From positions 1-64,000 of the forward strand of contig JAVZJR010000003.1 of NCBI GenBank assembly GCA_038870635.1: DNA of 64,000 nucleotides, written 5' to 3'. Position numbers: made by a program. Numbering within the stretch: the stretch's first letter is position 1; each line of letters begins with the position of its first letter. The stretch is from Candidatus Bilamarchaeaceae archaeon (GTDB taxonomy: Archaea; Micrarchaeota; Micrarchaeia; Anstonellales; Bilamarchaeaceae). Below, piece after piece: positions 27,001 through 30,000 of the stretch.

Positions 27001-30000
27001 AAAGAGAATACCATTAATCCTCTTGAGATTCACGAATGGACGGTTAGTTGTTTTGATGAGAATAATAAAGCAGTAGCGTGTGTAGGTAATAATTGGAGAT
27101 GGGAAGGAATAAAAGGTGATTTCGTAACAAAAACAAATGAAAAAGCATTAGCGTATTCAACTGCAACTAGTAAAGTAAGTGGTAAAATAGTTTATAGACA
27201 AGGTGAAATAAATTGCAGTGCAAATGTAACAGTTGATCCGCGCTCTCTTCCACAATTTGTTTGTATGCTTGAGCCATCATCTGCAGAAATGGTTGTTAAT
27301 GAAACTAAAAATTTTGACTTAAAATGTATATTTAGAGACGAAAGCGGCTCTTCAAAAGAAACAAAGCCTCAAAAAGCAGATTATGCAGCAGTCGAAGGGC
27401 TCATAGGAAAAGTCGAGCCATATCCACGCGATCCAACAAGTGGTGTAACCTTTAATGCAACTGACGTAAGCGCAGGAAAACTTAGAGGAATAGGTTATTA
27501 CACAACACCTTTGGACCCAACATTAAGAGGAGCGATTGCCTTTTCATCAATAAATGTTGGTGCTGGTGAATTACAATGCGGTGAAAACGAGACGCTGGTT
27601 TGCCACCTTGAAGAGATAGAACTTCCATTCGGAGGCAGTACATTTATAGTTATATGCGAATGTGTGCCAAAAGAAGATAACGAGGAAGAAGACAAGTCAA
27701 ATATGGAGTGCGTTATAAGCCCACCAAATCAAAGGATATCACCATTACAACCTGGATTAGCAACTGTGAGTTGCTATGATAAGCAAACTTGGAGCAGGGT
27801 AGAATGTGGCAGCGATATAACCTGGTCAATAAATGAGAACCTAGCGACATTCAAAGATAATACTTATGGAAAAACAAATGTTGTATTCAATGCAAAACCA
27901 GGCGCTACTGGCGAGGGGTTCTTAAACGCCAAAGTAGGCGATAATGTAAGATGCGAGGCCAAATTCCTCGTTTCTCCATACACATGCTTAGAAATCAGCT
28001 AACTCTTTTTTAATTTTTTAAAAAACATCATAGTTTGGGTGAGCGTAAGCCTTTGCCCTTGTAATACAGAAGTCAAAGGCTTCGTAAGAAGCCAAGAAAA
28101 CAGGAGAAAACATAAAACGGCTGCGGTGGCCGATGAAAACATAAGTCCACCGCACATAGAAAACAGAAAGTATAACAGAGAAAACAGTAAGAAGCCAAGA
28201 AAACAGTAAGAATACCTAAAAACGAAAACTATTTATTTATAATTATTGTTATCTTAGCAGGGTGGTCTTGTGAGCTCAATAGATGATGTTTTGAAATATA
28301 TAGCAACAAATGAGATTAGATGGGTTGACTTCCAATTTTTTGGTTTAGATGGTAGTTTACACCGTACAACTGTTTCAAACAGAAAAATTGACGAAAGCAC
28401 GTTCGGAAAAGGACTACGAAGTGCAGATTTAAGAGAAGTCTTTGGTGAAACAAATGGCGAAATAACACTCTTGCCTGATCCTGATACAATGGCAAGACTT
28501 CCATGGGAACCCGCAACAATTAGATTAATTTCAGATATTATGGTGATGCCCGAGGGCGAAAAATATGTAAAGGATTCGAGGAGTATGGCTGATAGAATAG
28601 AAACAAACCTACAAGCAGCAGGTATAAAAGAAGCAAAAATAGGTGCAGAAGTAAATTGTTATATATTTGACACAGTAACACTGGAAAAGATGGATATAGG
28701 AAGAGGAACAGGTATAATCATGGATTCAAGAGAATCAAAATGGAGCCCATCACCATTAAGTTGTGAAAAAGGAGCATATATCAATCAACCTAACGATAGC
28801 TTATACGCTGCAAGATGCCAAATAGCAGAGACATTAGAGGATAATTTTGGTGTCTTGATAGACGGTCATTGGCATGGAAGCAGTCCAACAGGCCAGCAAA
28901 CATTTGAATTAGCAGAGACAAATATAAAAACAGCAGGAGATGCGTTTGCAACATTAAAATTTGTAACACGAAATCTTGCAACTGCTGTAAACGTATCGTC
29001 TACTTTCATGCCATACCCAGTAGAAGGTGAAAAAGGAAACAATTTATTTATATCAATTAGTCTATGGAAAACAAGTGATAATAACATCTTCTATGATGCA
29101 GAAGAAAAATACGCGCAAATAAGCCAAAACGCAAGATATTTTATTGGTGGCCTTCTTGAGCACACAAGGGCGTTAACGCTTTTCACCTGTCCAATTCCAA
29201 ACTCCTACAAAAGGTTAGCCGCAGCTAACTTTATAGCGGGTTGGAGCGCAATAAAAGGAAACACAATTGTATATGTGCCGCATGCAAAAAAGAACAGAAA
29301 AGAAACCAAGAGGATAGTATTTAAGCTTTCTGACCCGGCAGTAAATCCGTACCTTGCCTACGCAGCAGTTTTGTCTGCTGGTCTTGACGGAATAAAAAAC
29401 AAAATAGAGCCTGGTGAGCCAGCAGAAGAAGAAGGAAAAAAGAAAAAAGAAACCACTCTTCCATCCAATCTTTACGAAGCTGTAGAGGCGCTAGAAAGCG
29501 ATCCTAAATTTATAAAAGGCGTGGTAACACCAGAGTTCTTAGAAAGCTATTTAGAATTGAAACTCTCGCAGTATAAAGAAGACAGAACAGCAGTCAGCAT
29601 GGCAGACCACAGAAAGTATTATAACATCTAATTCTTTCTTTTTTTATTTTAAACTTACCGCTCGTCAATTATCTAAGATGATATACATTTAAAAACACTT
29701 TTAATAACAATATAATTATGGCAAATGTGAAACAAGATAACATTAAGGCTAAGGCATTACTGTTTGTATACAAAATTAACAACTCGCCATATTTTGAAAC
29801 TCCACTTAATGAAACAATTACAAACACTGAAGTAATAAAAAGAATAAACAAATTAAAAGAGGTTTGGGAAAAGCTTCCGGAAAGGGTAAAAATATATACC
29901 GTTATTAAAAGAAGTAAAAAAGACGAGTTGTAAGCATTTATAAACTTTCTCTTTTATTATTAAAACAACTATTTCTCCCGATGTGATTTTATGGAAAACG

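Follow-up and report, generated by a model that had tools for sequence, protein, structure and literature searches.

The closest described relatives of the protein reported here are the type I-beta glutamine synthetases (GSI-beta GlnA), that is, the intact 'KLDG' glutamine synthetases (GS) of other Micrarchaeia, Nitrososphaerota, Thermoprotei and Thermoplasmata. Lengsin, a remnant of class I GS in the vertebrate lens (PDB 2j9i), is dodecameric and catalytically inactive, and has been implicated in the reorganisation of intermediate filaments, as the available portions of two reports describe it (PMC2667176; PMC2605723). There are also GS-like gamma-glutamyl ligases (GSI-gamma; PuuA/GlnA2/GlnA3), among them an archaeal example, Haloferax mediterranei GlnA-2 (PMC8394153, portion available). 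A report of a dead archaeal GS was not found in the literature searched, which was mostly open-access; ‘lengsin’, ‘pseudo’ and ‘noncatalytic’ are absent from the portion covered of a 2025 GS review (PMC11800386), where moonlighting concerns human GS, and glutamine is not mentioned in the covered part of PMC8561730. A recent survey of Micrarchaeota counts matches to arCOG01909 as GlnA (PMC12892359, Dataset S7) and, in its available part, credits Anstonellales with the synthesis of nearly all amino acids.

P0001 is a GS homologue encoded in a genome bin of a Candidatus Bilamarchaeaceae archaeon (G000; 859 kb, 89.55% complete), within a stretch of 64,000 nucleotides that was analysed as a whole and is called the window here; its features are collected in Table 1. 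Both the beta-grasp N-terminal domain and the catalytic C-terminal domain of the GS-I fold were recognised by Pfam (Gln-synt_C at residues 102–450, Gln-synt_N at residues 16–91, the latter under its cut-off), in an AlphaFold2 model (pLDDT 91.1, pTM 0.91) and by Foldseek, which aligned the model to chains of GlnA dodecamers with a TM score of 0.92. A sequence search of the PDB returned 38 matches, from a beta-type GS as the best (E 2e-56) to lengsin as the weakest (E 3e-05, residues 317–428). P0001 scored under the curated cut-off in all four NCBIfam models that it matched, with 279.5 bits against 429.15 for GlnA (TIGR00653), and with 182 against 650 bits (gamma-glutamylputrescine synthetase) and 175 against 470 bits for models of gamma-glutamyl-amine ligases. 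The genome-wide survey's note had described P0001 as the only GS of the bin, and this proved correct: it is the sole PF00120 match, and five intact GS proteins used as tblastn queries (two second-copy types and one orthologue; E≤1) matched no other gene of G000.

Table 1. Features of the window that bear on P0001; positions are counted from its first nucleotide.
Feature	Position	Strand	Basis or remark
TATA-like AT-rich stretch and GGGTGG Shine-Dalgarno-like motif 4 nt 5′ of GTG	28230..28265	+	Sequence reading; putative
Pseudo-glutamine synthetase CDS, P0001 (GSI-beta type fold)	28270..29631	+	453 aa, GTG start, no internal stop
Asp50-loop region, residues 50–65, degenerate; DGSS and ESDM motifs gone	28417..28464	+	Conservation 0.63 (48 dead) against 0.90 (22 intact)
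ExE metal motif, here EVN (E127, N129)	28648..28656	+	Alignment
Beta-type inter-ring extension and next loop, residues 136–163; R154, E155, W158 and P160 conserved	28675..28758	+	Predicted dimer interface
HxHG...QQ segment; H200, H202 and Q210 invariant; metal Glu 203/211 replaced by Gly/Thr	28867..28902	+	Alignment
NGSGMHxH motif, here KGNNLFISIS; of the motif only G256 and S264 kept	29032..29061	+	Alignment
R315 retained; Glu flap 3 residues shorter, its Glu gone; catalytic Arg 330/335 are Gly/Tyr	29212..29274	+	Alignment
RIEFR motif, here RIVFK (V350, K352)	29311..29325	+	Alignment
C-terminal helix, residues 437–453, ring-linking in GS-I	29578..29628	+	Supplies the majority of top contacts in the dimer model; Y450 shared by 95% of family copies
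Putative archaeal-terminator-like T-rich tract right behind the stop codon	29632..29650	+	Sequence reading
Proteasome beta subunit and aCPSF1/FttA neighbours	29991..32608	+	Pfam; linkage not conserved in family
Thermosome gene, the most persistent family neighbour	37300..38952	+	Named from sequence

Ranked among 545 genes by share of C-ending codons, P0001 falls at the 93rd percentile, a weak hint of high expression, and thermosome and psmB reach the 99th. Upstream of the gene lie an A-rich repeat and a GC hairpin (28041–28224), preceded by three large ORFs (1154, 488 and 789 aa; 20695–28002) without Pfam match; a hydrophobic segment opens the first and third, and the third is also rich in cysteine, features reminiscent of surface proteins.

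Active-site residues were taken from the available part of the paper on Methanothermococcus thermolithotrophicus GS (PMC10799026), which gives F206, H252, S254, R321, R326, R336 and E189 as ATP ligands, and were mapped to P0001 by alignment and MSA. At these positions P0001 has E216, S262, S264, G330, Y335, R348 and D198, keeping 2/7. The reference metal ligands were M. thermolithotrophicus E137, E139, E194, E201, H250 and E338, of which E201 and E338 are presumed to be ligands on the basis of the alignment; P0001 retained 1/6 of them, and copies across the family Bilamarchaeaceae (f1) retained 0–2. The family alignment comprised 48 copies from 48 of the 60 carrier genomes, leaving aside the G003 copy (in-frame stop), the second G002 copy (a duplicate) and 11 further genomes assigned by identity alone. 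Glutamate at 203, 211 and 350 and the Glu-flap motif (EAP/EAA) occurred in 0/48 family copies compared with 22/22 intact orthologues, and His260 in 1/48 compared with 22/22. His was present at 262 in 9/48 family copies, Arg330 was kept in 7 and Arg352 in 6, while the motifs of the Asp50 loop were lost, though D53 was kept in 31/48. All 13 residues checked were kept by all 22 intact orthologues and by all 41 other catalytic copies.

These counts bear on much of what the genome-wide survey's note had claimed. The alignment bore out each residue that it had called in P0001 (Asn129, Gly203, Thr211, GNNLF, IKGNTIVYVP, Val350 and Lys352), and its contrast between clade copies without the HHE and QxE glutamates and canonical copies that keep them extended to the larger sample. 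The loss of the second ExE glutamate, which it had listed for P0001, is not a trait of the clade: E129 was kept in 36/48 copies and E127 in 34/48, and Asn129 is mostly private to P0001 because ExE largely survives in the family. The family identity of 45–78% that it gave was right at its upper bound, the measured range being 43–78%.

Degeneration was concentrated in the active site, where conservation was 0.51 in dead copies against 0.98 in intact orthologues, compared with 0.65 against 0.67 in the remaining protein; overall divergence of the two sets was similar (mean identity 0.53 and 0.57). With the sole exception of G203, lost positions carried no fixed replacement residue, and no substitute ligand was fixed. 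The emptied, freely varying site thus has, as far as sequences can tell, the appearance of a disused one, and loss of the metal, ATP, glutamate and ammonium ligands together with the Glu flap would leave P0001 catalytically inactive. Judged by its sequence, P0001 is a real, conserved pseudo-enzyme within the GS-I fold family. It was rejected as a gamma-glutamyl-amine ligase (PuuA/GlnT/GSI-gamma) on its sub-threshold scores and its lost metal and ATP ligands.

Outside the active site, only 58/107 positions invariant in intact orthologues were kept at ≥80% in dead copies, and conservation was gained at R76, E80, Y179, Q184, H200, Q210 and P160 (R76, E80 and Y179 were not kept in copies of the sister family f6), H200 and Q210 being present in 48/48 family copies. 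Residues 152–162 were also more conserved in dead copies than in intact orthologues (0.76 against 0.58). A homodimer model of P0001 scored 0.57, the best control scoring 0.00, with runs agreeing in ≥95% of contacts and a pLDDT of 88; the mark for this score is reached by 20/30 solved pairs and 1/23 single chains, and the pass may stem from likeness to solved GS dodecamers. Modelled contacts (residues 136–158, 245–254, 309–318 and 437–453) corresponded to the two-fold inter-ring contact of beta-type GS, the inter-ring role of these parts being described in part in PMC10799026. Several points speak against a retained ring: the model gave the inter-ring contact only and no ring-forming one, the degenerate Asp50 loop belongs to the ring interface, many non-active-site invariants are gone, and conservation at inter-ring positions of dead copies did not exceed that of the remainder (0.61 against 0.65).

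Several of the positions that gained conservation fall at the junction between subunits, which in methanogen GS holds the 2-oxoglutarate site. Seven positions matching that pocket, including W18, D20, E80, R182 and H200, were more conserved in dead than in intact copies (0.84 against 0.69), as would be expected of a metabolite-sensing ring, in which a small ligand or metal, bound in the repurposed junction pocket, would switch the binding of a regulator, like the feedback-inhibited Bacillus GS with GlnR. We consider this unlikely. Methanogen R20, R88, R174, R175 and S191 are D20, E80, R182, C183 and H200 in P0001; two of the four 2-oxoglutarate arginines are replaced by acidic residues (D20, E80) and a third varies among dead copies, so that 2-oxoglutarate is an unlikely ligand because the pocket motif is charge-reversed, and a 2-oxoglutarate sensor was ruled out on this ground. 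Moreover, D20 is also present in intact orthologues, the glutamine/glutamate and ATP sites are variable in dead copies, and the conserved pocket residues may simply lock subunits together. Partners of such a sensor did not appear either: PII was found in 0/61 family genomes and Amt was not found in G000 (89.55% complete), which led to rejection of a PII/Amt partner, and an Lrp/AsnC gene accompanies the catalytic copies rather than the dead GS (catalytic second copies lie mostly head-to-head with this divergent gene; L092–L131, with the cluster at 35 loci).

That the GS scaffold now carries a new enzyme, its site formed from H200, H202, Q209, Q210, D176, R182 and Q184, is distinctly unlikely. 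These polar residues are near-invariant in the family and largely so in f6, and GS-like proteins are known to adopt new substrates (available parts of PMC10799026 and PMC8394153). Against this, H202, D176, R182 and Q209 are equally invariant in intact GS, and a conserved metabolic neighbour was not found among the family loci. Known GS-like ligases are reported to retain ligase chemistry, while at most 2/6 metal ligands survive in any family copy. The four genomes of family f15 carry a different GS variant (L065–L068) that retains 5/6 metal ligands together with R335, R348 and R352 but in none of the four has the NG motif, R315, R330 or the flap; this variant is possibly a ligase with a new substrate instead of a dead enzyme.

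The dead copy was found in 60/61 family genomes and 23/23 genera, in agreement with the survey's statement that it is kept throughout Bilamarchaeaceae, although it is not limited to the family: all 10 genomes of f6 had a dead copy alone, with E203, E211, N255, H260, R330 and R335 absent from every copy. The lone family genome without it (G047) likewise yielded neither thermosome nor psmB. A second GS was found in 35/61 family genomes, and all 20 of the 35 second copies that were cut out kept 13/13 residues (11 beta-like, 9 alpha-like). The dead copy stood without a second GS in 25 genomes; among all family genomes with at least 90% completeness, which also number 25, it was alone in 11. An unassembled glnA, the caveat raised by the survey, may hold for G000 but cannot explain the family pattern: thermosome and psmB, as single-copy controls, were each found in 58/61 family genomes, and missing assembly therefore cannot account for the 26 genomes without a second GS. 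The same distribution makes it improbable that P0001 is a regulatory or assembly subunit of a catalytic GS in a mixed oligomer. Both genes do occur in 35/61 genomes, and three intermediates lie in genomes with alpha-type GS, one of them in tandem, but 25/61 genomes and 11/25 near-complete ones show no second GS, f6 genomes hold only the dead gene in 10/10 cases, and the second copies fall into two unrelated types.

Across the phylum, GS matches were obtained in 115 of 251 genomes. Families f2, f3 and f7 of the same order showed just distant GS matches, and the function of the dead GS is therefore not needed order-wide. Further GS-I representatives with many active-site losses and no clade signature are P0036, P0045, P0056, P0072, P0080 and P0082, as well as P0097, P0106, P0107, P0111, P0112 and P0150, and dead GS may have arisen several times.

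In G000 the GuaA glutaminase subunit, CTP synthase, GlmS and PurF retain their cysteine nucleophile motifs, and a GatB/E-type gene is present. Glutamine-using amidotransferases are thus kept with their nucleophiles, and the organism therefore needs glutamine; it probably imports glutamine or peptides. Ammonia-using amidotransferases were rejected as compensation because the cysteine motifs of the glutamine-using enzymes are intact. Elsewhere in the bin, a Glu/Leu/Phe/Val dehydrogenase gene lies directly 5′ of a stand-alone class I glutamine amidotransferase gene (G000:C4:47874–49132).

The fold of the dead GS is under purifying selection. Among 16 pairs of degenerate copies, dN/dS was 0.031–0.109 in 10, a pair of near-identical duplicates gave 0.147 and the remaining 5 were saturated; pairs of catalytic copies gave 0.017–0.075 in 8 of 9. 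G002 holds two dead copies that are 99.8% identical (L083, L084). That P0001 is a pseudogene in decay, or a GS that has diverged strongly yet remains active, is highly improbable: the copy of G003 has an in-frame TAG (L027), the f6 copy of G166 is split (L036) and G000 needs glutamine, but dN/dS is far below 1, full length and reading frame are held across 23/23 genera and the lost positions carry no substitute ligand, so that decay is already largely refuted.

An IQ-TREE phylogeny (59 rows, quick search, rooted on alpha-type GS) placed the dead copies of the family and of f6 on one branch (SH-aLRT 99), sharing the dead state, and nested this branch with the intact copies of f23 and f16 (SH-aLRT 99). 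Partly stripped copies (G155, G239, G234 and P0012) sat between dead and intact ones with weaker support (80–94), and the placement of f15 was unsure given its long branches; FastTree on 129 rows agreed with this topology. The sequences thus place the P0001 lineage as native, vertically inherited Micrarchaeota GSI-beta, nested among intact orthologues. The dead gene as a duplicate of the resident beta-type GS was rejected (12 dead and 3 beta-type family copies constrained together, p-AU 0.001, the grouping having been picked after inspection of the tree and comprising beta-type copies only, with alpha-type as outgroup). The nearest relatives that an outside search turned up belong to Nitrososphaerota, Thermoprotei, Thermoplasmata and Methanoperedens and were intact, with 12–13 of 13 residues; degenerate loci numbered 3 among the 80 loci of that search, all from Micrarchaeota and one a partial sequence, and a search of the ESM Atlas gave ordinary GS clusters only.

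Alpha-type GS is also present in all three intermediate-bearing genomes and in both intact f16 genomes, and in G234 an intact alpha-type GS is immediately followed, on the same strand, by the partly degenerate GS (L061). We suggest a history in which an acquired catalytic GS would have made the native GS redundant; the native GS would then have shed catalysis stepwise while being retained for another role, and many lineages would have lost, or never kept, the acquired enzyme, taking glutamine from outside.

Gene neighbourhood, which the survey's note had called not conserved, was so in that no operon is kept around the dead GS, but a loose conservation was seen: a thermosome gene lay within 10 kb in 24/58 genomes (11 genera), compared with 5/58 for psmB, on which count a proteasome link was rejected. 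Its orientation to the dead GS varied (upstream, downstream or convergent). When neighbours of the thermosome were counted instead, in 21 genera represented by one genome each, the dead GS was the commonest (10 genera), and an SRP54 cluster was near in 8/21, two of these being doubtful members. No thermosome was found within ~6 kb in GS loci of f6 or f15. The thermosome link is therefore a lead that may be old synteny, because it is unseen in f6 and f15 and because the SRP54 cluster lies near the thermosome similarly often. Glutamine-using genes adjoin GS in some lineages: in genus g12, pdxS/pdxT-like genes lie beside dead copies (L074, L075, L077, L079), and in f10 and f11, aspS and gatA/gatB-like genes lie beside intact GS (L046, L051, L058, L062), all named from sequences.

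The survey's proposal of a non-catalytic role for the GS scaffold gains support from ligand loss, purifying selection and retention without a second GS. On balance we think it probable that P0001 is a non-catalytic, lengsin-like ring of the GS type that is maintained to bind a macromolecular partner. It would still build a GS-like ring assembly, and would be retained since a conserved partner or client binds where subunits meet or at the central loop, by analogy with lengsin. As partner class we tentatively favour protein quality control, the ring possibly serving as a thermosome-linked platform for holding or docking. A fuller version is rather doubtful: an essential 12-subunit non-enzymatic ring, with clients or a ligand at the repurposed junction pocket and central loop, acting with the thermosome in quality control. 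If true, prokaryotes would have their own equivalent of lengsin in this essential, thermosome-linked ring, kept by cells that have given up making glutamine, and the living intermediates would record a switch from enzyme to scaffold.

This second role of the GS ring, apart from catalysis, would have to be strong enough to hold the gene in 60/61 streamlined genomes, and the graded series of intact, partly stripped and fully dead copies lets such a function be separated from catalysis. Metabolic reconstructions are affected where a dead GS is scored as GlnA. The arCOG01909 counts of GlnA (PMC12892359) probably include dead copies, and many such cells therefore probably depend on outside glutamine. 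The best overall statement is of a dead GS kept even where a working copy was not found, most likely as a non-enzyme ring scaffold.

Comparison with known systems places this protein apart from each of them. Like the 2-oxoglutarate-activated GS of methanogens (PDB 8ool series), dead copies are highly conserved at the equivalent inter-subunit positions; unlike that enzyme and the Bacillus GS–GlnR pair, both catalytic, P0001 has D20 and E80 for R20 and R88, and PII was not found in the family. The GS-like gamma-glutamyl ligases are likewise GS homologues without normal GS function, but they are enzymes, whereas P0001 is without metal ligands and scores well under the ligase cut-off. P0001 was rejected as an orthologue of lengsin, to which the match is weak, and it nests in archaeal GSI-beta in a tree built without lengsin; unlike lengsin, it would be of independent archaeal GSI-beta origin, it keeps a normal N-terminal domain, and 25/61 family genomes show no catalytic GS whereas animals retain one. 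From GSI-beta GlnA itself it differs in the loss of its Glu flap and of the ligands for metal, ATP, glutamate and ammonium, and in a score under the GlnA cut-off, yet it shares the two-domain fold, the beta-type extension and the C-terminal helix, with 33–38% identity to the intact orthologues.
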